A stretch of DNA of 52,166 nt from a virus. Lineage: Duplodnaviria > Caudoviricetes. Location: positions 1 to 52,166 of the IMG/VR virus record IMGVR_UViG_3300044274_000314, one strand, 5' to 3'. Under the pieces are notes generated by a model. The model made no database searches and was not told the origin of the DNA. It worked only from the letters and a program-made list of their open reading frames with translations. Made by a program: the position numbers and the translations under genes. Shown here in pieces: positions 1,470-36,884 of this stretch (within the stretch, counting starts at the first letter, position 1; every line of letters starts with the position of its first letter).

Positions 1470-1473
1470 ACTA

Positions 1474-2642: not shown

Positions 2643-2655
2643 GGGATTGCCCTTT

Positions 2656-2772
2656 CTATGGGTAGAGGTTCCCGTGCTGAGCCATCATCAGATCAGCGAA
2701 CAGGAGCCCGAGGAGGATTGAGAGTGCGAGGAGTGCGGCGACGATCAGGATTGCCTTGAGCGCGCGACGCAT
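2656..2772 (-). CDS. 38-aa single-TM peptide, not in the ORF track
   Basis: Manual translation MRRALKAILIVAALLALSILLGLLFADLMMAQHGNLYP*; fills the gap between endolysin and lipoprotein. Confidence 0.6.
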   Translation of the reverse strand: MRRALKAILIVAALLALSILLGLLFADLMMAQHGNLYP

Positions 2773-2777
2773 GGCCT

Positions 2778-15701: not shown

Positions 15702-18218
15702 CTATGGCGCGCCGTTGATGGCCACCATGATCGCCACGCCGGTGTTGTCGGCGGCAGGAAGCGTGCGCGTTCCTGTGGCGCCGGCAGAGGCGATCTCTTC
15801 GTCGTATGCGCCGTGCATGAGGCCGCCGAAGTTCAGCCAGCTTGCCCGCTGGGTCATGCCGCTCGGGGCACCGGTCGGGTAGCAGCTGGCCGCAAAGGCG
15901 ATGATCCGGCTGTTGTCGTTTGCGGTGGTGACGCCCGGGATCGTCTTGGACGTCCCGGAAGCAGCAGCACCAGCAATCGCCGCGGTCGGTGTGGATGTGT
16001 CCACGCTGTCGTATCGAAGCATGGCCGCAAACGGATAGTCCGCACCCGGAATCGTCCAGGTGTAGCTCGAGGGCTCGCTGGCGCCGGCGATCTTGTAGAA
16101 CACCTGCGCGTTGGTGCCGCCGGCAGAGTAGACCGACCCAAGCGCCGTCCATCCAGCAGGCGGCGTGAATGTGGACGACGCAAAGTCGCCAAACATAGCG
16201 ATCAGCAGGTCTCCTTCGACCGTGCCCGCGGGCTTGTTGATGCTCGTGGTGCCTTCCATCGTGGTGACGGACTGGAATACCGGCGTCGTTCTGCCGGCAG
16301 CGCCCGCTTCGACGTTGACGCCATTGCCCGCGTCCGCCACGCCGACCGCATCTGCTTCGACGTTGGCCGTCCGTGTCACCGTGCCGGCATCTACCACACT
16401 GTCCCCAGCCGCATTGACCGAGACGCCCCGCTTAACTGCTGCCCCGGCATCCGCAATCGTTGCGGCCAGCGCATCGACGCTCACGCCGCGAGAGACGCTG
16501 CCAGCGGTACCGATGCCTGTAGCATTGCCGTCGACCAGCACCGAGATGCTGACCGCGGATACTTCGGCCACGCCGGCTGCATCGGCAGAGACCGAAAGGC
16601 CGCGTTCGACGCCTGCGGATGCGTTAGCCGTCGCGGCTGCATCGGCAGAGATTGCAACTGTACGTTCGAGCGCAGCGGATGCGTCGGCGACCGCGGCAGC
16701 GTTAGCGGCGATATCGACCCCGATCTGAATGCCCGCACCACTATCGGCCGTCGCGGATGCGTAAGCTTCAACACCGACCGTCCTGGCGACTGCGCCAGCG
16801 TCAGCGATCGCGCCGACTTCGGCCTCAATACCGATCGAGCGTGTGACCGCACCAGCATCAGCGACGGCCCCTGCTTCAGCGTTGACGCGTGCCTCGCGCT
16901 GAGGCGCACCCACGGTACCGACGCCGATGACCTCCGCGTTGAACTCGCCTGCGATATCGGGGGTGCCAGCATCGGTGATGCCAGAAGCCGGGCTGTTGAT
17001 TTCGACGGCCACACCGATATCTGCGACCGCATCGCCGATCGATGCCGCCTCCGCGTCCACCGAAAGCGCCCGGGTCGGGGCTCCAGCATCGGCGACAGCA
17101 CCTGCGTCCGCGGTGACCAGAACGCCACCTTCCGGCGCACCAGCGTCTGCGATCGTCTCGACCTCAGCTGCAACGTGGATCTCAACGCGCGGCGAGCCGA
17201 CCTCGGCGACACCAGAGGCTTCTGCCGAGAACTCTCCGGCCACTTCTGGGGTGCCTGCGCTTGCCTCACCCGAGGCGGCTGCAGAAATCGACACAGTGCG
17301 GCGAGGTTCGCCCGTGGTGGCGGTTACAGAAATTTCGCTATCGATGCGCACCTGACGTTGCGGGGCGCCCACGGCTGCGACAGCGCCCGCAGTGTTGTCC
17401 ACCACGAGACGGAGCGTCGGTGCGCCAGCGGCAGCAACTGCGATCGCAGTGGCGGTGACCGGGACCGGACCGGAATTGTCACCGGTCAGGATCGGGCGAC
17501 CCTGGATCGTCCAGGAAGCGCGTGCCGGGTCCTGCCGGATGGCCTGAATGGAGTAGAGCTGCCCCCGGATGGTGATGCGGCTTTCGAGATCCGGAACGAT
17601 GGAGACGTCCTTCTGCAGGACGATGAGCTTCACATCCGTTTCCGGGATGTTGCCGCGCGCACGCTCGCGCGCAGTGTACTGTTCGACCATGCCCTTCGCG
17701 GAACTGGTCGACGTCGACTCCGACATGCCGCCTTCGCCATCCGCGGTCAGCGTGACTGAAGTGATCGTCGCGTCGAGGAGGAGCGGTGAAAAGACAGACC
17801 CGAAGACTTCCTTCAGGTCAGCGCCGAGGAGCCCGTAGAAGGCGATCGCAGTGGCGGTGTTCGGATAGACCGGGCGGCCTTGGATGGTCCACGAGGCCTG
17901 AGCGGGGTCCTGATCGATCGCGGCGACCGAGTAGACCTGCCCCGCGATGGTGATGGTGCTTTCGAGGTCAGGCGTGACGGTCACGCCCTCCTGAAGGATG
18001 ATCAGCTTGACGTCCGTCGCCGGGATGTCGCCATTCGCCTGCTCATAAGCCGAGTAATCCTCGACCATGCCCTTGGCGGCGGAGGTGGCCGGGGTCCCTT
18101 CGGTCCAGCCACCGTCCCCGGTTTTCGTCAGTGTCGGCTTCGAAATCTCAGCATCCAGAAGGAGCGGCGAGAAGACGGCACCGAAGACACCTGCAAGATC
18201 ACCATCCAAGAGCGCCAT
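15702..18218 (-). CDS. Tandem head-closure domains fused to an Ala/Val repeat stalk and a C-terminal beta-rich domain (838 aa)
   Basis: Occupies the head-closure slot after the adaptor; two ~118-aa copies ending DPAxASWTIQGRP, about 20 repeats of 19-20 aa, then a KPAGTVEGDLLIA...TPPAGWT domain. Confidence 0.8.
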   Translation of the reverse strand: MALLDGDLAGVFGAVFSPLLLDAEISKPTLTKTGDGGWTEGTPATSAAKGMVEDYSAYEQANGDIPATDVKLIILQEGVTVTPDLESTITIAGQVYSVAAIDQDPAQASWTIQGRPVYPNTATAIAFYGLLGADLKEVFGSVFSPLLLDATITSVTLTADGEGGMSESTSTSSAKGMVEQYTARERARGNIPETDVKLIVLQKDVSIVPDLESRITIRGQLYSIQAIRQDPARASWTIQGRPILTGDNSGPVPVTATAIAVAAAGAPTLRLVVDNTAGAVAAVGAPQRQVRIDSEISVTATTGEPRRTVSISAAASGEASAGTPEVAGEFSAEASGVAEVGSPRVEIHVAAEVETIADAGAPEGGVLVTADAGAVADAGAPTRALSVDAEAASIGDAVADIGVAVEINSPASGITDAGTPDIAGEFNAEVIGVGTVGAPQREARVNAEAGAVADAGAVTRSIGIEAEVGAIADAGAVARTVGVEAYASATADSGAGIQIGVDIAANAAAVADASAALERTVAISADAAATANASAGVERGLSVSADAAGVAEVSAVSISVLVDGNATGIGTAGSVSRGVSVDALAATIADAGAAVKRGVSVNAAGDSVVDAGTVTRTANVEADAVGVADAGNGVNVEAGAAGRTTPVFQSVTTMEGTTSINKPAGTVEGDLLIAMFGDFASSTFTPPAGWTALGSVYSAGGTNAQVFYKIAGASEPSSYTWTIPGADYPFAAMLRYDSVDTSTPTAAIAGAAASGTSKTIPGVTTANDNSRIIAFAASCYPTGAPSGMTQRASWLNFGGLMHGAYDEEIASAGATGTRTLPAADNTGVAIMVAINGAP
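16300..17450 (-). repeat. About 20 degenerate 19-20-aa coding repeats (consensus roughly A(V/I)ADAGAxxRxxxVxAxAx)
   Basis: Visible in the translation, e.g. AVADAGAPTRALSVDAEAA, AVADAGAVTRSIGIEAEVG, AIADAGAVARTVGVEAYAS; boundaries approximate. Confidence 0.8.
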
Positions 18219-18590: not shown

Positions 18591-19136
18591 TTATTTGGCC
18601 GTGGACGCGTCGGTCTTCGCAGCAGCTTCAGCGTCGGCCTTGGCCTTGGCATCCGCAGCGGCTTTCTCCGCCTCAGCGGCCTTGGCTGCGTCTTCGGCAG
18701 CTTTCGCATCGGCAGCGGCCTTCGCGTCAGCAGCAGCCTTTTCATCTGCGGCCTTCTGAGCGGCGTCGGAAGCAGCGGCCTCCGCCTGACCGATCAGTGT
18801 GGCAACAGCCTCGTCGGTCGCGTTCTCAGGCACGACAATATTCAGCTCGGCCGCCTTGGCGTTCAGGGCCTTGCGCTCGTCGCTGATCTCGACAGTCGTC
18901 GGCGTTGGTGCTGGGGCCGGAGCAGGTTCAGCAGCATGCTCTACCGGGCCAACCTTCGCATCCTTCGGCGCCACGGTGATGATCACACCTGCCTCGAAGT
19001 GCATACCGATCTTCTCGTCCGTCAGGACGCCTTCGACGTCCACGATCTCGGTCTTGCCGCGGCGTACTTCATGGGTGCCGCCAAGGACCTTGAAGGCCTT
19101 TCCGAACGGGGAGTTGTTCTCAATATGGTATTTCAT
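18591..19136 (-). CDS. Capsid-associated hypothetical protein with Ala/Lys low-complexity tail
   Basis: AGGAGG RBS; directly after the major capsid gene; LNAKAAELNI..PENAT helix-extension-helix-like segment. Confidence 0.75.
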   Translation of the reverse strand: MKYHIENNSPFGKAFKVLGGTHEVRRGKTEIVDVEGVLTDEKIGMHFEAGVIITVAPKDAKVGPVEHAAEPAPAPAPTPTTVEISDERKALNAKAAELNIVVPENATDEAVATLIGQAEAAASDAAQKAADEKAAADAKAAADAKAAEDAAKAAEAEKAAADAKAKADAEAAAKTDASTAK

Positions 19137-20685: not shown

Positions 20686-21804
20686 TTACTTCTTCATGGC
20701 GACGCCGGCGGCGTCGAACACTTGGTTACCCCATGCATCACCGTCAGACGGCTTCGCGTCGGCCAGTGCTTTGGAGGCGGGATTGACCGGCTTGGCGTCA
20801 GCGGTCAGGTGGTCGAACAGGCCGTCGATGTAGTCGGCGGACTTGTCCTGCACCTTCTCGTCACCGAGCTTGTGCGCCACTGCCTGCTTCTTCAGCTCAG
20901 CATTGGAGACACCATCGGTGGCGAGGTCGGGTGCGATAGCCTTGACCTTGGCGACGATCGCAGAGCGGTCGGCAACCATCTGGTCGATCTTGGCGGCGTC
21001 GAACTGCTTCGACTTCAGATCCTCGATCTCAGCATCCTTCTTGCCGAGTTCGGAGTCCTTCGCAGCCAGAGCAGATGCGTGATCGGTTTCGGCCTTCTTC
21101 GCAGCGGCTGCTGCGTCGGCCAGCTGCGACTGCAGCTTGCTGATCACCTGGGCGCCCTGATCTGTAACCTCGATCGAGAGTCCGTCCACGGTGACCGTCT
21201 TCAGGGGTTTGTCGCCCATGGGATTTTCCTTCCGGTCTTTGGGGGAAACGGGGCTGGCGCCCCAGGTTTTCGCATCGTCGCCGATACGAGCTTTTGAACC
21301 CGCCCGCGCTCGGTCCACGACCGCGAGATGGTTGATTCTGATATTGCGCTGGATGGCGTCATACTCCTCGCCGTCAGCGGTGATGCCCGGTGTCCAGTCG
21401 AGGTCGCAGCCATAACCTGCGGAGAGTTCAGACGTGCCGTCCTCGACAGCCTTGATCGCTTTGGCGTCCTTCAGGATCAGCGGCAGGACGACCCATTCAC
21501 CGTCACGCTTGGCAGCAGTCGACACTTCGCCCACGGACAGGACCTTCCAGTTCTCGGCGGTGACCGCGTCTTCCGGGTGTTTCAGCGTCATGGGCGCGTG
21601 CGAGAAGCTCTGCAGGCTGTCCTGCGCGAAGACCTCCTCCTCCGGGCGGTAAACGCGCACCACGTCCATGTCTTTGACACCAAGCTCAGCGCCGGAATAG
21701 AGTTGGATTCCGGTCCGGACACTGCGTGCCTCGGCCACCAGGTAGCCGTCAGCGGTCTTGCGGGTGCCGGATACGGCCACCGCGTCGGTGAAGCGAATTG
21801 TCAT
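20686..21804 (-). CDS. DUF2213 prohead protease / scaffold protein
   Basis: TADGYL, RTGIQLY, VYRPEEEVF, ELSAGY, YDAIQRNIRINHLAVV..ARAG; GGAG RBS before MTIRFTD. Confidence 0.93.
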   Translation of the reverse strand: MTIRFTDAVAVSGTRKTADGYLVAEARSVRTGIQLYSGAELGVKDMDVVRVYRPEEEVFAQDSLQSFSHAPMTLKHPEDAVTAENWKVLSVGEVSTAAKRDGEWVVLPLILKDAKAIKAVEDGTSELSAGYGCDLDWTPGITADGEEYDAIQRNIRINHLAVVDRARAGSKARIGDDAKTWGASPVSPKDRKENPMGDKPLKTVTVDGLSIEVTDQGAQVISKLQSQLADAAAAAKKAETDHASALAAKDSELGKKDAEIEDLKSKQFDAAKIDQMVADRSAIVAKVKAIAPDLATDGVSNAELKKQAVAHKLGDEKVQDKSADYIDGLFDHLTADAKPVNPASKALADAKPSDGDAWGNQVFDAAGVAMKK

Positions 21805-21806: not shown

Positions 21807-22436
21807 TTATCTCCAGTTGGTCCGGACCCAGTCCAGATCCCGCACCGGTGGTTCGTGCATCTTTTCGGGGCCGTGGAAGTAGACGATGCGGGCGTCTCCA
21901 AGCCCGTCCGGCTTGACGTGGCCTTTGTAGGACAGGACCTGCCCGGGAAAGAGCGTGTCGATCACAGCCGGGTCCTGCCGCCTGATCCACTCCATGTCGT
22001 TCTCGCCCTGCCAGCGGTCGAAGACGTGGCTGTTTCCTGCAGGGACCAGCGCAACCCCGTTGCAGACCTGTTCGGGCTTGTATGGATCAAGAGGTACCGC
22101 GATCCGGTGTTCGGTCAGGCAGTACTCTGCGAGGTGGTCGATGTTCCCGGTGATGACCGTGTCGAGGCCGACCAGGATCATCGGGCGACCGAGCCGGTAT
22201 GGCTCGATGCAGTCCGCATAAGACGGCACGTGGTTGGTCAGGGGCTCCTGTGCGATCGGCTCCTCATAGTCCCGGTGGCGGTCGGTGAAACAGATGAACT
22301 CGAAAGGGTGTGTCAGGTGGCGTGCGAAGCCGCGGTAGAGCTTCTCCACCCACGTCTGATCGTACATGGACGAGAAGGATTTGGAGTGGCGGTTGGCCTC
22401 CCAGAACAGCGTGCAGACGACCAGATCAGCGGGCAT
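21807..22436 (-). CDS. GT-A fold glycosyltransferase-like protein
   Basis: Y...WVEKLY....RHL..PFEFICFTD, GLDTVITGNID (DxD position reads GLD), IVYFHG..K.H. Confidence 0.72.
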   Translation of the reverse strand: MPADLVVCTLFWEANRHSKSFSSMYDQTWVEKLYRGFARHLTHPFEFICFTDRHRDYEEPIAQEPLTNHVPSYADCIEPYRLGRPMILVGLDTVITGNIDHLAEYCLTEHRIAVPLDPYKPEQVCNGVALVPAGNSHVFDRWQGENDMEWIRRQDPAVIDTLFPGQVLSYKGHVKPDGLGDARIVYFHGPEKMHEPPVRDLDWVRTNWR

Positions 22437-22965
22437 GGCGGGTACGCCTGCCGATCAGTACCGCCTCGATGTCCTTGAGCGACCGGTCCGGCTTGAGAGC
22501 CTCGCCATCCACCCAGAGCGAGCCGGATGGCACATCCTTCCTGACTACAGAGCCTGCTGCGACCATCGAACCTGCGCCGATCCGGACACCGGGGAGAACG
22601 ACCGAATTTGAGCCGATGCTGGCGCCGTCCTCCATGATGATCGCGGGGCGCCCCTCGTACTCCGAGACGTCAAACCCTCGCTCATGCGCTCGTGGCCAGG
22701 CGTCGTTGCAGAAGGTGCAGTTTGGCCCGATGAAGCAGTCCGACCCAATCAGGAAGCCCGGACCTGCGGCGAAGTTGTGTGCGATCTTGGTCCGGTCGCC
22801 GACGGTCGACCCGTCGATGCACGCCCCGGAGGCGATGTTGCAGTCCTCGCCGATCACGGCTCCCCGGATGATCGATGCGAATTGCCAGATCCGCGTCCGT
22901 GCTCCGACCGTCGCGCCTTCTACGTGAGCCTTGGGGTGAATGAATGCGTCGGGGTGGATGCTCAT
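22426..22965 (-). CDS. Hexapeptide-repeat (left-handed beta-helix) sugar acetyltransferase, WbpD/FdtC-like
   Basis: IHPDAFIHPKAHV, TRIWQF, IGEDCNI, FIGPNCTFCND.WPR, GASIGSNSVVLPGVRIG. Confidence 0.9.
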   Translation of the reverse strand: MSIHPDAFIHPKAHVEGATVGARTRIWQFASIIRGAVIGEDCNIASGACIDGSTVGDRTKIAHNFAAGPGFLIGSDCFIGPNCTFCNDAWPRAHERGFDVSEYEGRPAIIMEDGASIGSNSVVLPGVRIGAGSMVAAGSVVRKDVPSGSLWVDGEALKPDRSLKDIEAVLIGRRTRHAR

Positions 22966-23327
22966 GCCAGCACCTTCTCAGGCAGCCGCTCGAACGCCCA
23001 CTCGAAGACCATACCTTTTGCTGGGTCGTCGTCCCGGTAGGTGGTGAGGGTCGCGTCGTACTTGGGGACAATGCCATCAGCCGGGACGATGTCGAACTTG
23101 GGGCTGAACGCCTGCACCAGGAAGACCGGCACCTTGCCGAACTGGATGTTGTTGCCCTGCCCCATCGCGCGGGTTTCGACAGACAGATGGATGCCAACGA
23201 TGCGGACTTCGCGCCCGAGAGTACCAAGAAGCCGGAGCAGTTCCTCAGTGTCGGCCGGCGCAACGATCGGCACTAAGCCGGCACGATTCTCTTCGAGGCC
23301 GATATCGGTCGGGGTGATCTGGGTCAT
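22962..23327 (-). CDS. Hypothetical protein, 121 aa
   Basis: ATGA-coupled on both sides within the cassette. Confidence 0.65.
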   Translation of the reverse strand: MTQITPTDIGLEENRAGLVPIVAPADTEELLRLLGTLGREVRIVGIHLSVETRAMGQGNNIQFGKVPVFLVQAFSPKFDIVPADGIVPKYDATLTTYRDDDPAKGMVFEWAFERLPEKVLA

Positions 23328-23941
23328 CGGTCTATGTCCTCCAACCAAGGAAAGCATGTCAGCGCCGAATCCGGCGTGGCGTTGAGGACCTCGACTTCGC
23401 CCGCCAGCCTTTTGGCCATGCGCTCGATCGAGGGGATGAAGGTTTGGTCGTAAGACTGGTCCGGTGTCGGGATTCGGTGGTCGCCGTGATAGTGCCCGGG
23501 CCGCATGTCGAAGCCGTGCAGAATGATCCGCGAGGCCCCGAGCAGGTAGGCAAGGTTGATTGCCATTTCTCCGCCCGTAGCGCCCGTCAGCGCGCGGATG
23601 GACGGATCGTCCGATAGGGTGTTGCCCTTGTCGTGCTCGACCGCCACCAGCGGCCACGGGAGCTCCCAGGAAGGGACCTGCCCTTGGCGGCCGAAACGGA
23701 AGCGGCTGCGGTTGAGGTGGAGGCGCTCCCGGTTCCAGTCGAACCAGCGCCTGTCCATGACCAGCAGAATGTCTGCGTCCGGAAAGAAATCGAGGCCTGA
23801 ATTGTTGACCGCGATCACCGGGTCGAGGTCGAGGATGCTGATGTCCATGTGGCGAAGACTGGGCCCACCGCCGAGGATATGGACTGTCTCGCCTGCGAAA
23901 GCCGCGCTGTCAGTGACGTCCCATTGCACGAGCCGGGTCAT
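23324..23941 (-). CDS. Maf/DUF115/CstII-like nucleotide-sugar transferase-like protein
   Basis: HILGGGPSL, VIAVNN, D..W, G..AINLAYLLGASRIILHGFDM, VLNAT motifs. Confidence 0.75.
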   Translation of the reverse strand: MTRLVQWDVTDSAAFAGETVHILGGGPSLRHMDISILDLDPVIAVNNSGLDFFPDADILLVMDRRWFDWNRERLHLNRSRFRFGRQGQVPSWELPWPLVAVEHDKGNTLSDDPSIRALTGATGGEMAINLAYLLGASRIILHGFDMRPGHYHGDHRIPTPDQSYDQTFIPSIERMAKRLAGEVEVLNATPDSALTCFPWLEDIDR

Positions 23942-24207
23942 TTCCGCTCGTCCACAGCAGCGTGATAGGCAGTGTGCGCCTTCCGGGCCATGCGGCGCCA
24001 TTTGGCCACCGTGGTCATGGGCGATGTCTTCCCGGCCGCTGCGCCCTCCATCAGGGTCGCCCACTTCGTCGGCCGCTTGTTGCGGTAGTGCTCGACGTAG
24101 AGTGCCTCCGCCATCCGGTCGATGATCTCGCCCATGGAGAGGCTGGATTCGGCCTCTTGGTTGGCCATGAGCGTGGCAATGCGTTCCTGCAGGGAGGGAT
24201 CAGTCAT
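23938..24207 (-). CDS. Hypothetical protein, 89 aa
   Basis: Overlap-coupled to both neighbours. Confidence 0.6.
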   Translation of the reverse strand: MTDPSLQERIATLMANQEAESSLSMGEIIDRMAEALYVEHYRNKRPTKWATLMEGAAAGKTSPMTTVAKWRRMARKAHTAYHAAVDERK

Positions 24208-24706
24208 CGGAGAGCCCCTGCTCCAGCTCGGCCCGGTAGCAGTGCGGACACCTATCGTCGTTACCATCGACCCAGCGATACTCCTGCTCGCAGGTCTCGC
24301 AGACTGTGCCGTACACCGTGTGGCGTACAGTTCTCTCTGCCCCCTCCTTCGCCAAGTCGGCACCAATCCACATCGGGACAATGCTGACCTTCGCAACATT
24401 CCCGATCATCGCAATGTCGATGGCGGCAGTGGCGCTGCTCTCGCGGATGGCTGTCTTGATCGCCTCAGACATGGCGACAATCTGGTCGGCAACCTCGGAG
24501 TCGACATTCAGGAGGTTGATGTTGTCGCCTGATGCTTGTTCGGCCCCCATCGACTGCAGCACAGCAGCGGATATGCGTCCGAGGTCCACGACCCCGTCCA
24601 CCTCGATGACGCTGCAATCGTCATTGAGCGGAGCGAGGTAGGCCTCGTTGTCGTTCTGCTCCTGCAGGGCTTCCCAGATCATGCTGGTCAGCTTTTCTTG
24701 GTCCAT
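24200..24706 (-). CDS. Hypothetical protein with C-terminal zinc ribbon
   Basis: GGAGG RBS; CETC...CPHC. Confidence 0.7.
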   Translation of the reverse strand: MDQEKLTSMIWEALQEQNDNEAYLAPLNDDCSVIEVDGVVDLGRISAAVLQSMGAEQASGDNINLLNVDSEVADQIVAMSEAIKTAIRESSATAAIDIAMIGNVAKVSIVPMWIGADLAKEGAERTVRHTVYGTVCETCEQEYRWVDGNDDRCPHCYRAELEQGLSDD

Positions 24707-24709: not shown

Positions 24710-25510
24710 TCATTCCTCCACGTCGATGATTGGCAGCTGGATACAGCCGCAGAATGGCTTCAGCCCAGGCGTGTCGCCTCTGGGATAGCCGAGCGCATAC
24801 TTCTTGCCGTTCCGGGCCTTGTGCTCCGGCCGGTAATGGACCTTCCCTGAGTGTCGCCACTCGTACTGTGTGAGCCCCGCTTCGTTCATGCGGATCTCGG
24901 TGAGTTTGCCCGACAGCTTCTGGGCCTGGTCGATGGCGATGCGGTTGGCGCGCCGGCGCTGGATGCCCAGCCGTTCGGCGATCTCCTTCCCCATCTCCTT
25001 GCGGGGTGTCTGTTCGGTCAGACCGCGCCAGACGGTTTCCTCAATGTCCTTACGGGCGGTGGCGTTGATGTCCCGGATCAGGCTGGAGATGCGCTGCTGG
25101 AACGCCTTCACCTTCGGCAGGCTGGCGGCCTGATTGATGAACGGGAACACGTCGACGCCCGTCCCGGCACGGACTGCCTCAGCCCAGCGCTGGTCGTGCC
25201 AGTTGATCGCCCTTCGCATCCACGCCTCGATCTCGACGTCGACCTGGACGGTGCGGCCCTCGATCAGTGCCTCCGCAATCCGGATGACTTCCCGAAGATC
25301 GTCGGTTTCATCATCGCGGGTGAGCGTTGAGACTGCCTGCCCATAGGCCGGGAGAATGCGGTCGCTGATCTCCTGCTGCCAGGCCCTGACCGGCTGGACC
25401 GTCACCGCGAAGAGCGAGCGCTTCAGCGCGTTCGTGATCTCGATCGGTCGCAGGGTCGTATCCCGGCGGACACCTGCCTGCCGGGCTACGAGACGAAGGT
25501 CATAGGCCAT
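24710..25510 (-). CDS. Minor head morphogenesis protein (SPP1 gp7 / Mu gpF family)
   Basis: RA..IA.DQ..KL, Y.WRHSG....RPEH.ARNGK, PG....CGC; follows the portal. Confidence 0.92.
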   Translation of the reverse strand: MAYDLRLVARQAGVRRDTTLRPIEITNALKRSLFAVTVQPVRAWQQEISDRILPAYGQAVSTLTRDDETDDLREVIRIAEALIEGRTVQVDVEIEAWMRRAINWHDQRWAEAVRAGTGVDVFPFINQAASLPKVKAFQQRISSLIRDINATARKDIEETVWRGLTEQTPRKEMGKEIAERLGIQRRRANRIAIDQAQKLSGKLTEIRMNEAGLTQYEWRHSGKVHYRPEHKARNGKKYALGYPRGDTPGLKPFCGCIQLPIIDVEE

Positions 25511-27429
25511 CAGCTTACGAGGCCATCCTTCTGCAGCTTCTTAGCCCAGTCCTCGACCACCTCTTCGAACATTTCCGGGCCGAGCTCGATCTTGCCGCTG
25601 AACGGCTTGACCGCGGAGAGGTCGATCTTCTCAGCGCCCTCATAGGTGATGGTGATGTGCGGCTGGAAGTCGTCCCACTCCCAATCAGCTCCGGTGCTGC
25701 GCTTGATGTCCTCATGCCGCCAGACGAGGTCGTTGGAGGCGAAGTGGAGAACGACCGCGCCTTTCGGACCGAGCGGCTCGACCACACGCGGTCCACCGGC
25801 AGGGATCGTGAGCTTCCCTTCCTTGTCACTGTACCAGGTAGAGCCGGCCTTCATCCAGTCGACAGGCGTGCGGGAGAACGCGATCGTGACGTGCATGTCC
25901 GAGGCCTTCAGCGTCTCGCCGAAGCCGTTACGCTTGGCCCATGCGACCAGCGCCTTGCCGTTCAGGACCTTGCGGTAGACGTAGAGCGTGCGCGGGGCGG
26001 CATCCTTCACCGGCTTGCCGGTCTTCGGATCGACGTCCTCGTCCTCTTCGTCGTCCTCCTCCGGATCCGCGTTCGGGTCGTTCGGATTGTCAGGATCGCC
26101 CGGCAGCTGGTTGGCCGGATCGTCATCCGCATCCGGGTCGAAGGACTCGGTCGTGGACTGGAATTCCTCCAGCGCGTTCTCGATGCCCGGGAACTGGCCG
26201 GACTCGATCAGCGCCGTCTCCAGCACCTTGGCCAGGACACCGTCGTTCAGCAGCCCCATGTTCGCGTAGTTCTTGAACGTCTCCGAGCGCGACTTCTCGA
26301 TCTCGGCATGCTCCTTCTCGCTCGTCTGGTAGAGCGGCCCCCACGTGTAGTGGATGGCCTCGTCCCGTGATCCGAGTTCGGAGCGAATGAACACCTCGTC
26401 CAGACGGGAGAGGCGCGGCGTCAGCGTCAGGCGCTGCTCGGCACCGATGCGGTCATAGTAGTTCTTCAGGTCGCTGTCGCCCGTGGCGTTGAGGCCACCG
26501 GGGGACTGGCCGAGGAAACGGGTGGCCGGAATATCGACTGCACCTGAGACGATCAGCAGATACTGCTGCATGATCTCCGGCAGCTTCTCGAAGCCGACCT
26601 GCTTCTGTTCGTACTCCTCCTCCTTGTCGAGGACGAGCGCGTTGACCGACGACTTCAGCGACATAGCAGTCGCAAGGCGGGTGCGCAGGCGCTCTGTCGA
26701 ATCTGCGGTGGCCAGATGCACGCTCATCAGCTGCGGGATCTTCAGGACGTCGAGCTTCGACTCCATCAGCATCTGGGCCACAGCCTGACCGGAGAGGGCC
26801 GCGTTGCCCATGGCATCCCGGACCCGGGCGAGCACGCTATCACCCCACGGATCGACCGCAGTGATGCGCTGCGGCTTCCGATTACCAGTGAAGGTGATGA
26901 TCCGCGACGGGTGGATGATCAGGGACACGCCGGTCTCGGTGGCCAGCGTGTAATCGACCGGCTCGCCGAACCACTCGTCCTCCGGGTTCTTGCGGAGCTC
27001 GTTGGTGCTGAGGTCATAGCGGGTCAGGACGTGGACGTACTTGAGGTCGCCCTGCTTCACCCGCTCGGGGTTCAGCGGCGTGGACGGATCATCAGTGCCC
27101 ACGCCCAAGAACAACGCTGCGCCGCCGTAGAGCCGGCCGTAGATCATGGCCTCGAGGATCTTCTCCTTCAGGCCGAGCCGCTTCTCTCCGGCCTCAAGCA
27201 GTTCAATCTGCTCTGCGGACGCTTGCCAGTTCCGCCACTCACGGACGCTGTCGAAAGCGGGGATGTCGACTGCTTTGCCAGCCATCCAGTCGCCGCGGTA
27301 CATGGCCTCCAGCTCTGAGGGGTCCACCTCGTTGAAATAGAACTCGTTGGCCGCGACCTTGTCGCGCTCGCTCATGAGCCCGCTGGCGAGGTTGCGCAGC
27401 GTGTCGGTGACGAAAGTGAATGCACCCAT
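25510..27429 (-). CDS. Portal protein (DUF1073 type) fused to a C-terminal 2H-phosphoesterase (Acb1-like) domain
   Basis: Portal motifs Y..DW.A.K.VDIPA.D..REWR, IHPSR, GA.DIPATRFLGQSP.GLNATGDSD..NYYD; acidic linker; C-terminal ~160 aa with HVT and HIT. Confidence 0.92.
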   Translation of the reverse strand: MGAFTFVTDTLRNLASGLMSERDKVAANEFYFNEVDPSELEAMYRGDWMAGKAVDIPAFDSVREWRNWQASAEQIELLEAGEKRLGLKEKILEAMIYGRLYGGAALFLGVGTDDPSTPLNPERVKQGDLKYVHVLTRYDLSTNELRKNPEDEWFGEPVDYTLATETGVSLIIHPSRIITFTGNRKPQRITAVDPWGDSVLARVRDAMGNAALSGQAVAQMLMESKLDVLKIPQLMSVHLATADSTERLRTRLATAMSLKSSVNALVLDKEEEYEQKQVGFEKLPEIMQQYLLIVSGAVDIPATRFLGQSPGGLNATGDSDLKNYYDRIGAEQRLTLTPRLSRLDEVFIRSELGSRDEAIHYTWGPLYQTSEKEHAEIEKSRSETFKNYANMGLLNDGVLAKVLETALIESGQFPGIENALEEFQSTTESFDPDADDDPANQLPGDPDNPNDPNADPEEDDEEDEDVDPKTGKPVKDAAPRTLYVYRKVLNGKALVAWAKRNGFGETLKASDMHVTIAFSRTPVDWMKAGSTWYSDKEGKLTIPAGGPRVVEPLGPKGAVVLHFASNDLVWRHEDIKRSTGADWEWDDFQPHITITYEGAEKIDLSAVKPFSGKIELGPEMFEEVVEDWAKKLQKDGLVS

Positions 27430-28925: not shown

Positions 28926-29361
28926 CGGAAGACTGGCCGGTGATGGCCTGGCAGAGCGCGCCGTACTGCTCCAGCTGCTCGTCGGTCAGGCTGGACAGGT
29001 CGATGGTCTCGATCGGGCCACCGTTCCTGCCGGTGTGCTCGTTGGCGGTGCGATCCTTCTGGTCGAGCATCTGCTTGCCGAGCCAGATTTGCATGGCCAC
29101 GTTGCCGTTCTGAGCGTTCTTCCACTGCATGCGGCGGAGGGAAGCCTTGCCGGCATCGGAGTGCATTTTAAAGAACTCCGCAAAACCAGCGTACCCTTCC
29201 TCCTTCAGGCGGCGGTCAATTGTGTCCACCGAGCACTCGAAAACGGATGCGCACTCCTCTGCGGTGCACTGGATCGCACACATCGCTTCGAGTTGTTTCA
29301 GGTCGATTTCCTTGCGTGGGCGCCCGCCGACGTCGACTTCGGGTTCCTGCTGATCAGACAT
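28900..29361 (-). CDS. terS: Terminase small subunit
   Basis: GRPRKEID, N-terminal HTH, GKASLRR.QW..A..GN..M.IWLGKQ.L.Q.D; upstream of terL. Confidence 0.88.
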   Translation of the reverse strand: MSDQQEPEVDVGGRPRKEIDLKQLEAMCAIQCTAEECASVFECSVDTIDRRLKEEGYAGFAEFFKMHSDAGKASLRRMQWKNAQNGNVAMQIWLGKQMLDQKDRTANEHTGRNGGPIETIDLSSLTDEQLEQYGALCQAITGQSSDDSNSAEG

Positions 29362-30607
29362 CGGCCAACTCCTTCGCAGGGACGCGCTCTGCCTTCAGGC
29401 CGGTGAAGTCCTCCCAGCGTTTGACGATCACGTCGCAATAGGCGGGGTTCAGCTCCAGGCCACGGCAGTGGCGGCCTTCCATCTCGCAGGCGATGAGGGT
29501 GGTGCCGGAGCCGAGGAACGGATCGTAGACCGCCTGCCCGGCTTTCGAGTTGTTGAGGATTGGGCGGCGCATGCATTCGATCGGCTTCTGGGTGCCGTGG
29601 ATGGTCTTGCCATCATCGACATTGCCCTGAGTGCGGTGCATGTTCTGGATTTCCCAGAGCGTGGATTGCTTCCGGTCTCCGGCCCAATGCGCCTTGCCTC
29701 CGTTGCGCACCGCGTACCAGCACGGTTCATGCTGCCAGTGATAGTTTCCGCGCCCCATGACGAGGCTGTTCTTCGCCCAGATGATCTGGGACCGGACCTG
29801 ATAACCAGAGGCGACAAGCGAGTCCGCGACCGTGGCTGCATGCAGAGCACCGTGCCAGACGTAAGCGACGTCGCCGGGGAAGAGCTCCCACGCCTCGCGC
29901 CAGTCAGCGCGGTCATCGTTCAGGACCTTTCCTTCGGCGCGTTTCTGATGAGCCTTGTTCACGCCAGCTTCCAGACGCCACTTCGGATCATACTTCACGC
30001 CATAGGGAGGATCGGTGACCATCAGGTGCGGAACCGCACCTCCCAGCGCTTTTGCAACCGCATCCGCATCAGTGGAGTCGCCGCAGCAGAGCCGGTGGTT
30101 TCCGAGGATCCAGACGTCGCCCTCCTGGGTCGCCGGGTCAGCAGGAGCTTCCGGGATATCGTCGGGGTCGGTCTTTCCCTCGGTACCGGCCGAGAGGATG
30201 GACAGCACGTCCACCGGGTCAAAGCCTGTGAGGCCGATATCGAAATCTGTGTCCCCGAGCTCTGCGAGTTCGAGGCGGAGGATATCCTTGTCCCACCCAG
30301 CGTTCAGAGCGAGCTGATTGTCCGCGAGGATGTAGGCGCGCTTCTGCTCATGCGACCAGCCGGTGGCGATGATCACCGGGACCTCATCGAGTCCCATTTT
30401 TTGCGCGGCCTGGAGGCGGCCGTGACCTGCGAGGACGCTGTTCTCTTCGTCTACGAGGATGGCGTTTGTCCACCCCCACTCCTCGATAGAGCGGATGATC
30501 TGCTGAACCTGCGCATCCGAGTGGGTGCGTGCGTTCTTCGGATCAGGCTTCAGGTCGGAGACGGCACGGCGCTCAACGCGGTCGGCCGGCCATTGCTGGT
30601 CGGTCAT
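29354..30607 (-). CDS. ParB-like N-terminal domain fused to an N6/N4 DNA methyltransferase
   Basis: NARTHS..Q, AGHGRL, ADNQLA (ParB); TDPPY, HGTQKP, DPFLGSGTT (MTase). Confidence 0.93.
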   Translation of the reverse strand: MTDQQWPADRVERRAVSDLKPDPKNARTHSDAQVQQIIRSIEEWGWTNAILVDEENSVLAGHGRLQAAQKMGLDEVPVIIATGWSHEQKRAYILADNQLALNAGWDKDILRLELAELGDTDFDIGLTGFDPVDVLSILSAGTEGKTDPDDIPEAPADPATQEGDVWILGNHRLCCGDSTDADAVAKALGGAVPHLMVTDPPYGVKYDPKWRLEAGVNKAHQKRAEGKVLNDDRADWREAWELFPGDVAYVWHGALHAATVADSLVASGYQVRSQIIWAKNSLVMGRGNYHWQHEPCWYAVRNGGKAHWAGDRKQSTLWEIQNMHRTQGNVDDGKTIHGTQKPIECMRRPILNNSKAGQAVYDPFLGSGTTLIACEMEGRHCRGLELNPAYCDVIVKRWEDFTGLKAERVPAKELADV

Positions 30608-32044: not shown

Positions 32045-32729
32045 TGGTGACCTCCTCCGGCGGTTCAAATAAGTCTGATGTGGCGTAGTCGGGGACGAGC
32101 TCTGCAGCCTGGAGACGGAGTATCCGGGCCTCGAGCTCTTTGGCTTCGGCCTGAAGACGCAGGACATCTGCTCGGGCTTTCACCCGGTCCCGTAGAATCT
32201 CGGCGACCGCACGCCCTAGCTGGGTCTTCATTTCGATGTGGCGGAGCCACTGGCGTTCCTGCCATGCGCGGCCGATCGGCATGTTCGGTGCGCGCCAGAG
32301 CGCGACCTTCATCAGGAACCAGTCCGGCACTTCGGCTTTGCGGACCTGCGCACGCTTCCGCCGTTTGAAGTTGCCGTCCTCGAGGACCAGCCAGCCAGCC
32401 TCTGCAGGGATCTCGTCCTTGCTGCAGATGTCCGGCGTCGTCACGAAGTCGAATCGTGTGCAGTACGGCAGGTACTTGCGCCACTTTTCGCTCCGGAGCT
32501 CGCCGACGAAATCCTCCCGGCGGGCCTTCACCTCGAAGATTCGAGGGTCGGTCAGCTTGTTGCGTCGGGTGTCGACCGCATAGGCATCGGGCCTGCATTT
32601 GTAGAGCTCAATCTCGGCCCACGCAGCCGTGCTGGGCTGGCCGCACAACCAGGTCAGCAGCGTCTGCTGCAGGTGGTCGTGCCCGTTCGGGCGTCGCCAC
32701 GCATCCGGATCATAGGCGCCGGGCTTCAC
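32037..32729 (-). CDS. MmcB-like PD-(D/E)XK endonuclease
   Basis: RPD...IFEVK.RREDF..E....KW..YL.YC.RF.F...EIP.EAG. Confidence 0.8.
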   Translation of the reverse strand: MKPGAYDPDAWRRPNGHDHLQQTLLTWLCGQPSTAAWAEIELYKCRPDAYAVDTRRNKLTDPRIFEVKARREDFVGELRSEKWRKYLPYCTRFDFVTTPDICSKDEIPAEAGWLVLEDGNFKRRKRAQVRKAEVPDWFLMKVALWRAPNMPIGRAWQERQWLRHIEMKTQLGRAVAEILRDRVKARADVLRLQAEAKELEARILRLQAAELVPDYATSDLFEPPEEVTNG

Positions 32730-33274
32730 GAGCGGGTGTGCCTCGCGGTCACCGCCGACCGGCGGATCATGTATTCCGGCGTCTGGTTGGCCGATCGCTG
32801 CTGGTGCTCGGCGCAGTAGCTGGCAGTCGCGTCGGAGACGACGCGGCCGCAGAACAGGTGCGCCTCATTGCCCTGCGCGTCGTTAACCGGCCAGCGACAC
32901 TCATTTCGTGCCAGTTCTATGATCTCCACACGCCGCATCGGCTCTGCCTTCCTGGGGGCACGCTTCGCTTTCGGGAGCTTCGGTTCCTCACGCTTTGCCG
33001 TTTGTGGCGCGACAGGCGGCGACACAGGCGGTTTCGGGGCCGGAGGCGGCTTCGGCGCCATCTTCTTCCTGATCTGCACAGGGCGCGAAGGAATCGCGCG
33101 GCTGTCGAGTTGCAGGCGGTGGCGCCGGCCGATCACGGAATTGCGGCTGCGGCCGTTGCCGAACCGTGCGTTCAAGAGCCGGGCGATCGTGGTGGCCGAG
33201 TGGCCCTGCGCCCATTCCTGCCGGAGCATCGCGTCCTCGGCCGGCGCCCATGCTATACCTCTTCCGCTGCTCAT
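32726..33274 (-). CDS. gcrA: GcrA-family transcriptional regulator
   Basis: W......L...WAQGHSA..IA......SRNSVIG..HRL; C-terminal L....CRWPV.D.......FCG.......YC.EH. Confidence 0.9.
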   Translation of the reverse strand: MSSGRGIAWAPAEDAMLRQEWAQGHSATTIARLLNARFGNGRSRNSVIGRRHRLQLDSRAIPSRPVQIRKKMAPKPPPAPKPPVSPPVAPQTAKREEPKLPKAKRAPRKAEPMRRVEIIELARNECRWPVNDAQGNEAHLFCGRVVSDATASYCAEHQQRSANQTPEYMIRRSAVTARHTRS

Positions 33275-33624
33275 GCGCTGATCACCTCCGGTGTGGATTG
33301 TTTCTGGAAAAGGCCGACCAGGGTCTGCATGCCCTCGGAGGTATCCAGCCGCTGCAGGCGGCGGAACCAGTTGGCCGGCCATAGATCGATCGTGGTGGAG
33401 GGCGACCAGGTGTCGATGCACCAGGCCTCGAAGTCCGTGTTTTCGACGCCGATGCTGATCAGATCCACCTTGGCCACGAGGCCGGTGCAGATCGGACCGT
33501 TCGCCGGGTATGACTTCAGCACCGTGAAGATCTGATTCCGGCACAGCGGAAACTTCGTGCTCGCAAACGGTACGCCCGGCCAGTCGTCCAGGACGCTCGC
33601 GACTTTCTCACCGACCTCGAACAT
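33271..33624 (-). CDS. Hypothetical protein, 117 aa
   Basis: Coupled by overlaps on both sides. Confidence 0.65.
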   Translation of the reverse strand: MFEVGEKVASVLDDWPGVPFASTKFPLCRNQIFTVLKSYPANGPICTGLVAKVDLISIGVENTDFEAWCIDTWSPSTTIDLWPANWFRRLQRLDTSEGMQTLVGLFQKQSTPEVISA

Positions 33625-34580: not shown

Positions 34581-36100
34581 ACGAGTTGCTCCTCCAATTG
34601 TTCGAGTTCTGATTTGCTGGTGACGAGGCAGTCGGTGCCGGCATCGTAGTGCGCGACGATCCGGCCGACCTGGCCGTGACGGTTCTTCGCTGCGTTGAGC
34701 TCGATCTTGCCTTTGGCGTCGGAGATGTCCGACCACCACTGCATCCACTTCTTTTCCGTCTCGCTGCCACTGGCGCCATGCGGCGGCTCGGATTTGGCGA
34801 GGTAGTATTCGTCGCGGTAGCAGAAGATGACGATATCGGCGTCCTGCTCGATCGACCCGGAGCCCCGGAGGTCAGCCAGCTGGGGACGTTTGTTTTCCCG
34901 CATTTCGCACTGGCGGCTGAGCTGGGAGAGCAGAATGATCGGGACGTTCAGGTCCTTGGCCAGCTGCTTTAGCGCTGAAGTCGTTCGCCCGAGCGCAGCC
35001 GCTTCGCTCTCTCCCGGCCGGAACATGAGGTTCATGATCTGCAGGTAGTCGATGACGATGAGGTCCAGGCGGCCAGCAGAGCGCTTCAGCGCCCGCGCAC
35101 GTGCCGCGATATCGCCGACGCTGAGTGCGCCCGTGTCATCGCAATACAGCGTGTCAGGGATGGCGTTGCGGCCTTCACGCAGGATCGCCAGCTGGTTGAT
35201 GCCGAGAGATCCGTTGCCGGCGTCCTGGTATTCGACCCGCCCTGCCCCGGTCTTGTGTGCGAGCGAGGAGATCAGGCGGATATCGTAGTCGGACTTCTCC
35301 ATCTCGAGCGAGAAGAAGCCGACCACATTGTTTCCGTCGCCATGGTCTGCCCGATCGGCAGCGACCGAGGCCGCTATGTTGGAGGCGACCCCCGACTTGC
35401 CCATACCCGGGCGGCCGGCGAGGACGATAAGGCGCCCCGGCACCAGGCCGCCGATCCTCTTGTCGAGTTCAGGCAGGCCGCTACGGAGCCCTCGGACCTG
35501 CCCGGGTTTCCCGTTCTGGACGATGTCCTCCATCTGCGCGTAGACGCGCACGGAGGATTCTGAAGCGGCCTCCCACTTCGAGCCGCGCAGGTGCATGTCC
35601 TCGATCGCCTGAAGGCTGTCACGCGCCTCCTCGAGCCATTCGGAAGGGTTGGTGCCCTCTTTCGGGTGACGTCCGCTGTCCTGCATGAGCTGGCCGGTAC
35701 TGATCAGCATGCGGCGAGCAGCCGAGTTCCGGACCATCACACAGTAGTCGGTGAGCTCAGCGCCAAAGGCCGCGGACTCAAGCAGGTCGATCAGGTAGTT
35801 TGCACCACCGATGTCCCGGACCTCCGGAGTCTGCTCAGCCCATTCGTGCATGATCACACCATCAGCGGTGAAGCCCGCTTCAATCAGGATCATTGCCCGA
35901 TGGAAAATCTTCTGGTGCGCGACCGCATAGAAGTCGTCCGCGCGAACAATCTCCCGGATCCGGTCGAGGTCCTGATTGTTGAACAGGATCGCACCAAGGA
36001 TCGCGGCCTCTGCGGAGAGGTTGTGCGGCTGCTTATCCGCCTCACCTTCCCGCTTCTGGCCGAAGCCGTGCACCCGGGCCATGTCGCTACCGTCAGCCAT
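34577..36100 (-). CDS. dnaB: Replicative DNA helicase, DnaB family
   Basis: PHNLSAE.AILG, LAGRPGMGKS, FFSLEM, VIDYLQ, LSQLSR, DLRGSGSIEQDAD, KNRHG. Confidence 0.96.
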   Translation of the reverse strand: MADGSDMARVHGFGQKREGEADKQPHNLSAEAAILGAILFNNQDLDRIREIVRADDFYAVAHQKIFHRAMILIEAGFTADGVIMHEWAEQTPEVRDIGGANYLIDLLESAAFGAELTDYCVMVRNSAARRMLISTGQLMQDSGRHPKEGTNPSEWLEEARDSLQAIEDMHLRGSKWEAASESSVRVYAQMEDIVQNGKPGQVRGLRSGLPELDKRIGGLVPGRLIVLAGRPGMGKSGVASNIAASVAADRADHGDGNNVVGFFSLEMEKSDYDIRLISSLAHKTGAGRVEYQDAGNGSLGINQLAILREGRNAIPDTLYCDDTGALSVGDIAARARALKRSAGRLDLIVIDYLQIMNLMFRPGESEAAALGRTTSALKQLAKDLNVPIILLSQLSRQCEMRENKRPQLADLRGSGSIEQDADIVIFCYRDEYYLAKSEPPHGASGSETEKKWMQWWSDISDAKGKIELNAAKNRHGQVGRIVAHYDAGTDCLVTSKSELEQLEEQLV

Positions 36101-36884
36101 TACAACCTCCATGAGCGCTCTGAGGAACCGTCACGGCCACATCGCCGCCCCCATCGAATTCCAGTTCGTCAAACTTGGTGGCCTCGTTGCCCCATGTGTC
36201 CCACCCGGGGCGGCTCTGGCGGCTGAAGAGTTCCAGGCGGCGCACGCCCGGCACCAGCGCTTCAGCGGCCGCAAAGGCCTCGTCCGGCTTGCGGGAATGC
36301 TCCCGGGCTTCGGCCATGATCACGGAGCGGACGTTCTTGGCCGTTTCAGGATTGCCGTTCGTGGCGATCAGAAACGGCTCATTGGCGCTTCTAAGGCGGT
36401 ATCCGGTGCCGAAATGCAGCTTCCCGGTGCGGGTGGTCTTCACCCACGTGCCGGCAGTCACGTACCGGAATCCCCACGCTTTGATGACCTCAATCGCTTG
36501 CGGGAGCATCGGGTTGGTTGCCCAGAGCCACAGAAGGCAGTCGCCCGCAGCGAGCTCGCCGACCGGCAGCGCCTTGATGTCCTCAAGCGGCATGCAGTCG
36601 TATTTTGCACTGGCGTTTTTATGCGCACCCTTGTCGGACCAGTTCTCAAACGACCATGGCGGGTCCGCCATGATCAGCCCGTAGGAGAAGGGCTGCAGCT
36701 TCGCGAAAACAGGTTCCGGATTACCGTCCTTAGCCGCCATATGAACAGGATCGACGGAAGTGGCGGCTTCCTCCCCTGCCCCCGGCGCGGGATTGACCTC
36801 CGAGGAGGCAGGACAGTCTTGTTTACCCAGTCCGTCCGGAACGGCATTGGGGGAGTAGGCCGGGGCTTGTTCGAAATCAGTCAT
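36093..36884 (-). CDS. MT-A70 family adenine methyltransferase
   Basis: ADPPW, Y.CM....IKALPV..LA..DC.LWLWAT, WGF.Y, REHSRKP, ELFSR..RPGW..WGNE; start uncertain. Confidence 0.93.
   Translation of the reverse strand: MTDFEQAPAYSPNAVPDGLGKQDCPASSEVNPAPGAGEEAATSVDPVHMAAKDGNPEPVFAKLQPFSYGLIMADPPWSFENWSDKGAHKNASAKYDCMPLEDIKALPVGELAAGDCLLWLWATNPMLPQAIEVIKAWGFRYVTAGTWVKTTRTGKLHFGTGYRLRSANEPFLIATNGNPETAKNVRSVIMAEAREHSRKPDEAFAAAEALVPGVRRLELFSRQSRPGWDTWGNEATKFDELEFDGGGDVAVTVPQSAHGGCNG

Follow-up and report, generated by a model that had tools for sequence, protein, structure and literature searches.

Why does a temperate phage keep sugar-modifying enzymes in the middle of the operon that builds its head? 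The question is raised by a complete provirus, IMG/VR record IMGVR_UViG_3300044274_000314 (52,166 bp, rated 100% complete), the whole of which was analysed and is referred to here as the window. Six genes, g1 to g6, lie between the gene for a MuF (SPP1 gp7-like) minor head protein and the gene for a DUF2213 protease/scaffold (Table 1). A preliminary description of this DNA had read all six as a cassette for glycosylation of the virion. The comparisons made here point to a smaller unit, with a predicted functional core of g5, a hexapeptide acetyltransferase, and g6, a putative glycosyltransferase resembling glycosyltransferase family 8 (GT8), often joined by g3, a putative transferase of the CstII/Maf/MptE fold. 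Phage glycosyltransferases inside virion operons are of a kind already known. What is new is the enzyme set, the mobility of the pair or trio across the capsid families of proteobacterial phages, and its kinship with pmgO and pmgQ of phage P1. Glycosylation of virion proteins by the module is the likeliest reading, at about even odds.

Linkage and genomic setting of the sugar enzymes

Relatives of g6 are abundant. There are 914 at E ≤ 0.001, and the module is present on at least 148 viral contigs, from phages with capsid proteins of five families. Of the 148 viral contigs in which a g6 relative was confirmed, the best 80 were analysed, together with 18 loci from bacterial genomes. By tblastn, g5 is located upstream of g6 in 79 of the 80 viral loci and in all 18 bacterial loci, while g3 is present in 27 and 11 of these, respectively. 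Rough gene calls place the acetyltransferase as the immediate upstream neighbour of 56 of the 80 glycosyltransferase open reading frames (ORFs), with one gene between the two in 11 more. An MptE-like domain is fused to the glycosyltransferase in 17 of the 26 longer g6 relatives, and in the fusion protein P0167 a g6-like part (residues 2-205, 58% identical to g6) precedes a g3-like part. In contrast to this linkage, g1 and g4 had no tblastn relatives in 100 cassette loci (the 80 viral, the 18 bacterial and 2 further viral loci). Across the same 100 loci g2 is limited to window-like backbones, where relatives of 47-59% identity are found just upstream of g3 (L007, L009-L012, L088, L089, and L002). 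The linkage counts and fusions, together with the absence of g1 and g4, suggest that the functional core is the g5-g6 pair, often with g3. This much of the six-gene cassette stands, with or without g3; g1 and g4 do not belong to the conserved part, and g2 does so only in phages built like the window. Both g1 and g4 have the look of passengers confined to this lineage, at a junction of the head operon that tolerates insertions, and g1 is probably outside the sugar module.

The gene neighbourhoods were compared by clustering 960 rough gene calls from the 80 viral loci, with PHROG annotation of the representatives of 68 clusters and a Pfam scan of three long forms of the glycosyltransferase and of representatives of 19 clusters left unexplained. 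The glycosyltransferase gene is flanked by recognised structural genes on both sides in 48 of the 80 loci, on one side in 27, many of these on cut contigs, and on neither side in 2; in the other 3 it was missed by the gene caller. Structural flanks are thus present in 75 of the 77 loci with a called gene, and the embedding in a structural operon, which the preliminary description had noted for the window, holds across unrelated phage backbones. Neighbours within three genes of the glycosyltransferase are mostly co-oriented with it (395, with 37 in the opposite orientation). At least six backbone types could be sorted by eye from the gene order. The loci carry major capsid genes of five PHROGs (29, 1328, 10, 247, and 283) and portal genes of three (146, 145, and 12), and the pair is inserted after MuF (the window type, 6 loci), after the portal gene, after the capsid gene, or between the head-tail adaptor and the Hc1 head-closure gene. 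In the last of these arrangements g3 is often on the other side of the adaptor. At other loci the pair has sugar-tailoring companions, among them a TylF-like O-methyltransferase, further methyltransferases (8 of 80 loci), an additional paralogue of g6, and a protein resembling GT9.

Of the 18 bacterial loci, 16 have prophage structural genes nearby, the exceptions being L095 and L096, and 17 are from Alphaproteobacteria. Loci L088 and L089, on two contigs of one Henriciella mobilis assembly, contain the same cassette-bearing region with identical tblastn coordinates and identities, which suggests that the prophage is present twice or that the assembly has duplicated it.

In one podovirus-like backbone (loci L013-L015, L017, L018, L020, for example at 2399-3769, L025, L078, L081, and L103; cluster 16), the acetyltransferase-glycosyltransferase pair is immediately preceded by the gene for a protein of 456 aa with tetratricopeptide repeats (TPR) at its N-terminus. 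This protein was considered as a relative of g3 or g6 and rejected (hhalign probability 0.1). TPR domains often bind protein substrates.

Predicted activities of g5, g6 and g3

The description of g5 as a hexapeptide sugar acetyltransferase of the WbpD/FdtC type is upheld by its Pfam family (PF00132, E 7e-24) and by its nearest relatives of solved structure. By sequence, the nearest Protein Data Bank (PDB) entries are 7s3u (E 4.3e-29), 4mzu (E 2.5e-28), 3mqg (E 6.7e-22), and QdtC 3fs8 (E 3.6e-8), all of which we take to act on nucleotide-linked 3-amino sugars. O-acetyltransferases start among the PDB matches only at E 1.5e-11. Against NCBIfam the best match was NeuD/PglB/VioB, with 63 bits against a cut-off of 160.8, and the 25 best of 49 models were all far below their cut-offs. 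The sequence matches support a placement of g5 closest to the N-acetyltransferases of nucleotide-linked amino sugars (WlbB/FdtC/QdtC type).

The assignment of g6 comes from its fold. It belongs to phrog_1962 (E 3.7e-41), and a profile of 64 of its relatives searched against PDB sequences found no glycosyltransferase, the lone match being a spurious PWWP domain. The AlphaFold2 (AF2) model made with these 64 relatives has a mean predicted local distance difference test score (pLDDT) of 96.9 and superposes on glycogenin (3usq) with Z 16.8 and a root mean square deviation of 2.8 Å over 187 of 209 residues. It also matches the Skp1 galactosyltransferase (6mw5, Z 16.2), GlyE (5gvw, Z 16.1), LgtC (1g9r, Z 15.7), the GT8 structure 3tzt (Z 15.5), UGGT (Z about 14), and LARGE1, with a Foldseek match to 1zct at E 6e-8. 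Several of these GT8-type enzymes, namely GlyE, the Skp1 galactosyltransferase, and UGGT, have proteins or the glycans on proteins as their substrates. Among viral structures, g6 is matched best by a phage protein of 700 aa that bears the name MptE-like, with a query TM-score (TMq) of 0.80. The model supports g6 as a GT8-like glycosyltransferase of the GT-A fold, and at the level of the fold the earlier reading of a GT-A-like enzyme is therefore sustained.

The similarity to glycogenin, LgtC, and GlyE extends over nearly all of the 209 residues and includes a conserved Asp that follows strand four. A His-Gly...Lys-Pro segment close to the C-terminus is conserved as well. Residues H188, G189, and K192 of this segment are invariant in the 64 sequences and align with PmgQ of phage P1; they may correspond to the H..G..K-P motif of GT8 enzymes, in which the His is the third metal ligand. 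Unlike those enzymes, g6 has no PF01501 match and has a Gly at the first Asp of the DxD motif. The GLD reading of this position, previously raised as a caveat, is confirmed as G90-L91-D92, in which G90 and D92 are invariant in the 64 aligned relatives. At 209 aa, g6 is also shorter than the solved GT8 enzymes (about 250-310 aa) and lacks the C-terminal part present in LgtC. In one backbone type the protein is longer, at about 335-342 aa (P0003, P0026, and P0054; locus L008 4995-6020), through a C-terminal extension made of a charged low-complexity stretch and a short helical end. This extension, for which Pfam gave no match, may serve as a tail for targeting.

The third enzyme, g3, belongs to phrog_4603 (E 2.5e-32) and also gave a confident AF2 model (pLDDT 94.2). 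Foldseek returned about equal matches to Maf (5mu5, TMq 0.66), CstII (1ro8, E 6.2e-5), and the archaeal MptE kinase (8sd5, E 4.8e-5), whereas the sequence profile prefers CstII (E 7e-4) over MptE (E 0.047). In the profile alignment the GxGPSL and SG..A..G..I.L.G.D nucleotide-binding motifs of g3 are aligned with CstII; the alignment ends before the catalytic region, and H152 of g3 is nearly invariant. The fold and the N-terminal nucleotide-binding motifs are thus shared with CstII (family GT42) and with Maf, a member of the Pfam MptE-like family PF01973. Unlike the 632-aa Maf, g3 is at 205 aa a minimal domain without the extra domains, and scores below the PF01973 cut-off; precomputed PF01973 assignments are present on 13 of 35 g3 relatives. 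The model supports the assignment as a CstII/Maf/MptE-fold transferase, as the preliminary description had proposed, and we infer that g3 would add a sugar activated with cytidine monophosphate (CMP), of the acidic type. The structural comparisons suggested at that time, with GT8, GT42, and Maf structures, thus lead from g6 to GT8-type enzymes and from g3 to CstII and Maf.

All six proteins of the block look soluble, because none has a 19-residue window with a Kyte-Doolittle hydropathy of at least 1.6 (maximum 1.51). This bears out the expectation of soluble enzymes.

Relatives in cultured phages and the possible target of the module

A weak tblastn match of g6 led to phage P1, where homology was then seen by profile comparison. 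PmgQ is homologous to g6 (hhalign probability 97.4, E 1.2e-11; both phrog_1962) and PmgO to g3 (probability 99.6, E 1.1e-23; both phrog_4603). PmgP falls into phrog_2111, which is related to phrog_4603 since ORF374 of Xanthomonas phage XacN1 matches both. The P1 genes pmgO to pmgQ are co-oriented in a single block next to tail genes, preceded by LPpmgL, which is annotated as a late promoter. They resemble the window genes in their homologous enzymes, in their co-oriented position in a late operon, and in being accessory. They differ from it in lacking a hexapeptide acetyltransferase and in having PmgP, a second MptE-like paralogue, and a phosphatase gene in between. At the position where g6 has G-L-D, PmgQ keeps D-L-D. 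The three P1 genes are annotated with a 'putative morphogenetic function', and what they offer the module is kinship, not explanation. The same families adjoin structural or packaging genes in P1, Citrobacter phage phiNP, XacN1, and Tetraselmis viridis virus S20. In S20 they are accompanied by two methyltransferases and lie between Hc1 and the capsid region, and XacN1, a jumbo phage, has the 4603-2111-1962 trio. At least two virion glycoproteins have been reported for XacN1, which the available text of that report credits to two other genes (PMC5852040). A search of the accessible literature found no paper that assigns a function in phages to these families.

Virion glycosylation by phage enzymes has a precedent in mycobacteriophages, which glycosylate capsid and tail tube with their own glycosyltransferases; Che8 gp110, Corndog gp38, and Myrna are the cases named in the available part of the source (PMC12363180, citing Freeman et al. 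2023). The window resembles these systems in its phage-encoded glycosyltransferases and accessory genes and, as expected of a virion glycosylation system, its glycosyltransferases are co-located and co-oriented with virion genes. The mycobacteriophage hosts are Actinobacteria, whereas those here are Proteobacteria, and the glycans are demonstrated there and predicted here. When g6 was searched by tblastn against 50,697 phage records at E ≤ 1, 23 were matched and none of these was a Mycobacterium phage. The serotype-converting gtr and O-antigen genes are a further comparison, as they encode sugar-modifying enzymes borne by temperate phages. Serotype-converting Gtr proteins are membrane proteins expressed in the lysogen, with genes near attachment or tail-fibre regions. 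In contrast, the block proteins have no hydrophobic segment and their genes are inside head and neck operons.

The folds, the linkage, and the position in structural operons fit enzymes that build a short glycan and are made along with the particle, and a glycan on virion proteins is what we infer from them. In such a scheme g1 to g6 would be transcribed with the head genes during lytic growth. The acetyltransferase g5 would N-acetylate a nucleotide-linked amino sugar made by the host, or acetylate the product, and in the cytoplasm g6 would move a sugar from its nucleotide donor to a side chain exposed on at least one virion protein, or add to a first sugar already in place. The glycan would then be capped by g3 with a CMP-activated acidic sugar, a nonulosonic acid in hosts that make one and otherwise perhaps 3-deoxy-D-manno-octulosonic acid (Kdo). 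The outcome would be a glycan coat on the particle, with g2 possibly helping the module, and the region would be a mobile late-operon glycosylation module (g5, g6, and g3) accompanied by unrelated small ORFans.

Several results weigh against a glycan on the virion. No acceptor was found: none of the capsid, decoration, and tail-tube proteins of the window extends at its C-terminus past its family profile, and there is no common protein target since phages that share the module have unrelated capsid proteins. The characterised relatives of the enzymes include those of lipopolysaccharide (LPS) and lipooligosaccharide (LOS) synthesis, namely LgtC, CstII, and 3mqg, the last entitled 'Lipopolysaccharides biosynthesis acetyltransferase'. 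The enzyme assignments themselves have gaps, in that g6 matches no Pfam family at E ≤ 0.01, PF01501 included, and no NCBIfam, an invariant Gly replaces the first Asp of its DxD motif, and g3 reaches only 26.8 bits against the PF01973 cut-off of 34.6 (E 5.3e-6, residues 109-146 only). The proposed sugar donors are not secured, because among five host genomes with such prophages, whose completeness is not given, the FdtA isomerase was found in none and NeuB in two; DegT-type aminotransferases are in all five, but also in all 14 control genomes, and are uninformative. The cassette is also dispensable for the backbone, being absent from more distant relatives of the same backbone. It is present in 5 of 20 contigs with relatives of the window protease, all five of them already found through the glycosyltransferase, while in 11 the protease follows the portal or MuF gene without a cassette (Rhizobium phage RHph_TM3_3_3 is an example) and in the remaining 4 the upstream sequence is too short to tell. 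In P1, pmgO, pmgP, and pmgQ were scored as non-essential by CRISPR interference, according to the available text (PMC10695390). Likewise, in the accessible part of a P1 virion study 24 of 29 knockouts had no plaque defect, the virion proteome names only PmgC and PmgG among the pmg proteins, and a word search for 'glyco' returned nothing (PMC9024508).

The preliminary description had named the neck fibre among the possible acceptors and had proposed a survey of its co-occurrence with the genes; the fibre is not a conserved partner. It is peculiar to the window, and the 24 Hc1 genes found in cassette-bearing relatives are plain, encoding 106-162 aa with no fibre extension, so that the neck fibre was rejected as a general acceptor, another point on the negative side. 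The window neck protein itself (838 aa) has tandem Hc1 head-closure domains at about residues 1-120 and 128-243, followed by roughly 400 residues of Ala/Gly/Val/Asp-rich repeats, with a 60-nt period at 16555-16697, and a C-terminal globular part.

A 181-aa protein of no known family, encoded between the capsid gene and the DUF4054 gene, has a domain at its N-terminus, followed by a linker rich in Pro, Ala, and Thr and by a long tail rich in Ala, Lys, and Asp. Pro/Ala/Thr-rich linkers are a kind of segment often used in bacterial O-glycosylation, and on account of this resemblance the protein is a candidate acceptor.

An alternative target is the host envelope, with the soluble enzymes acting late in infection at the cytoplasmic face on intermediates of LPS core, O-antigen, capsule, or S-layer. 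Such remodelling could hide the receptor on cell debris and on nearby cells, or alter the surface of the infected cell as it dies. Enzymes of LPS or LOS are among the relatives of each of the three (LgtC at Z 15.7, the CstII LOS sialyltransferases, and 3mqg), g3 has a faint match to the Kdo III transferase WaaZ (E 0.0087, far below the cut-off), and a host-side target fits a module shared between unrelated capsid types but mostly within one host class, as in 17 of 18 genome loci. We nevertheless consider this unlikely. It leaves unexplained why the module is inside head and neck operons; in the window no such genes were seen next to the repressor or the recombination genes, and the module has neither membrane segments nor Gtr-like partners. 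In addition, replacement of the surface within the latent period is slow, and P1, which bears the homologues, is not known for seroconversion. If the envelope were nevertheless the target, the timing would be unusual for phage-driven surface conversion. The probability is lower again, and we would call it distinctly small, that the module is an accessory which merely uses permissive late-operon junctions and acts outside the particle, either on a host protein such as flagellin or pilin, in the role of Maf, or on a small molecule, for example in counter-defence. The MuF/protease junction does take other inserts: in Synechococcus phage Yong-M2-251 these are hypothetical genes and an endonuclease gene, and in the window they are the ORFans g1 and g4. 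Maf proteins glycosylate flagellin, the pterin pyrophosphokinase 8sd5 shares the MptE fold, and the same operon has an Acb1 domain on the portal, active against the cyclic-oligonucleotide-based antiphage signalling system (CBASS). Chance insertion, however, would not explain the presence of 75 of 77 loci in structural operons or the co-orientation of 395 of 432 near neighbours, and glycan building is what the accompanying sugar O-methyltransferases and additional glycosyltransferases suggest.

The genes also adjoin packaging and head genes, which would suit glycosylation of the phage DNA timed with packaging, as in the T-even and newer hypermodifying phages, and DNA-modifying phage glycosyltransferases are well known from the sources as available (PMC13326640; 10.1101/2023.12.21.572611). 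In the accessible table of the former, the DNA glycosyltransferases match enzymes such as BshA and sucrose-phosphate synthase, not glycogenin (PMC13326640). The window has no thymidylate-synthase-like hydroxymethylase, TET/JBP dioxygenase, or cytosine-5 methyltransferase among 63 chosen ORFs searched with Pfam and PHROGs, and its methyltransferases are of the N6/N4 and MT-A70 types. P1, with its g3 and g6 homologues, has ordinary restrictable DNA. Because the 63 ORFs scanned in this complete provirus include no enzyme for a hydroxylated base and P1 DNA is ordinary, a DNA acceptor is highly improbable.

Glycosylation of the virion can be put in a more general form, which we rate as somewhat less likely than not: that a compact, horizontally mobile kit, made up of a GT8-like transferase, a CstII/Maf-like transferase, and, in alphaproteobacterial phages, an amino-sugar acetyltransferase, glycan-coats the virions of many Gram-negative phages, P1 included through pmgO, pmgP, and pmgQ. 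If this holds, the presence of the kit on unrelated capsid folds would mean an acceptor rule that is independent of the capsid family. Knockouts and virion preparations of P1 already exist, and the module is directly testable in that phage. Were the particle found to be coated, virion glycosylation would be a general phage trait, and a function would be given to three P1 genes unexplained since the annotation of the genome. It would also matter for the stability of phages, for the masking of receptors, for immune recognition during therapy, and for the interpretation of unexplained density in cryo-electron microscopy.

The provirus and its late operon

The window phage is a temperate siphovirus with a cI/S24-type repressor, RecE/RecT-like recombination genes, a DnaB helicase, and a GcrA-like regulator. 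The GcrA family is characteristic of alphaproteobacterial hosts, and the GcrA-like gene points to such a host for this reason. The closest relatives of the block region are in Henriciella genomes, and the host is probably a Henriciella-like alphaproteobacterium. The late operon is on the minus strand and runs from the small and large terminase through the portal, with its C-terminal Acb1 domain, and MuF to the six-gene block, followed by the DUF2213 protease/scaffold, a gpD-like decoration protein, a gpE-like capsid protein, the neck genes, and the tail genes.

Table 1. Positions of the six-gene block, its flanking genes, and other genes of the window discussed in the text.
Feature	Position	Strand	Basis
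MuF/SPP1 gp7-like minor head protein (head morphogenesis), 266 aa; upstream flank	24710..25510	-	PF04233 Phage_Mu_F, E 4.1e-10; phrog_324, E 1.5e-42
g1, 168-aa acidic protein with C-terminal CxxC-x12-CxxC zinc ribbon	24200..24706	-	sequence
g2, 89 aa	23938..24207	-	no family
g3, putative CstII/Maf/MptE-fold transferase, 205 aa	23324..23941	-	phrog_4603 and fold
g4, 121-aa ORFan between g3 and g5	22962..23327	-	coding-like composition
g5, left-handed beta-helix (hexapeptide) acetyltransferase, 179 aa	22426..22965	-	PF00132
g6, putative GT8-like retaining-type GT-A glycosyltransferase, 209 aa	21807..22436	-	phrog_1962 and fold
DUF2213 head maturation protease/scaffold, 372 aa; downstream flank	20686..21804	-	PF09979, E 6e-55; phrog_530, E 8.4e-105
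Portal with C-terminal Acb1 domain	25510-27429	-	
181-aa protein	18591-19136	-	no known family
Neck protein with tandem Hc1 domains, 838 aa	15702-18218	-	
ParB-methyltransferase fusion, MT-A70 methyltransferase, GcrA-like regulator (three genes, coordinates listed together)	29354-30607; 36093-36944; 32726-33544	-	

The coordinates, junctions, and coding composition confirm that six co-oriented genes are packed between the gp7-like gene and the protease/scaffold gene. From MuF to the protease the junctions are, in order, a 3-nt gap, overlaps of 8, 4, 4, 4, and 11 nt, and a 2-nt gap, in agreement with the earlier statement that the genes overlap or are at most 3 nt apart. The codon-position GC of all six fits the coding pattern of this genome, with 0.78-0.82 at third positions (GC3) and 0.40-0.53 at second positions (GC2); for g4 GC3 is 0.78. 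For g2, g3, g4, and the protease, the start used is an ATG inside a longer ORF. The short form of g3 is supported by a 205-aa relative with 89% identity over its full length, and no backing was found for the chosen start of g4. A consensus scan of the minus strand at 21807-24706 found no σ70-like promoter and no terminator-like site, although alphaproteobacterial promoters may differ from this consensus.

Database searches with the small proteins of the block returned little. A HypA match of g1 is weak and below the cut-off (E 0.0039), and g1 has no PHROG or NCBIfam match and no usable protein Atlas match. Neither g2 nor g4 has a Pfam, PHROG, or NCBIfam family, and the Atlas model of g4 is of low confidence (pLDDT 0.49), with no usable match. 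The close relatives L006, L007, and L010 have longer MuF proteins of 585-849 aa (genes 1510-3288, 558-3104, and 1163-2917) than the 266 aa of the window, which has the ORFan g1 where these have the C-terminal extension of MuF; no similarity was found between g1 and the extension.

The ParB-N6/N4 DNA methyltransferase fusion is encoded directly upstream of the small terminase, and an MT-A70 methyltransferase and the GcrA-like cell-cycle regulator are encoded as well. The Acb1 domain, a 2H phosphoesterase, occupies residues 480-631 at the C-terminus of the portal (PF23474, E 1.1e-37; phrog_755, E 1.5e-17). The phrog_146 profile spans the whole portal-Acb1 fusion, which is also carried by the relative L012, and this counter-defence enzyme may be built into the particle or delivered with it.

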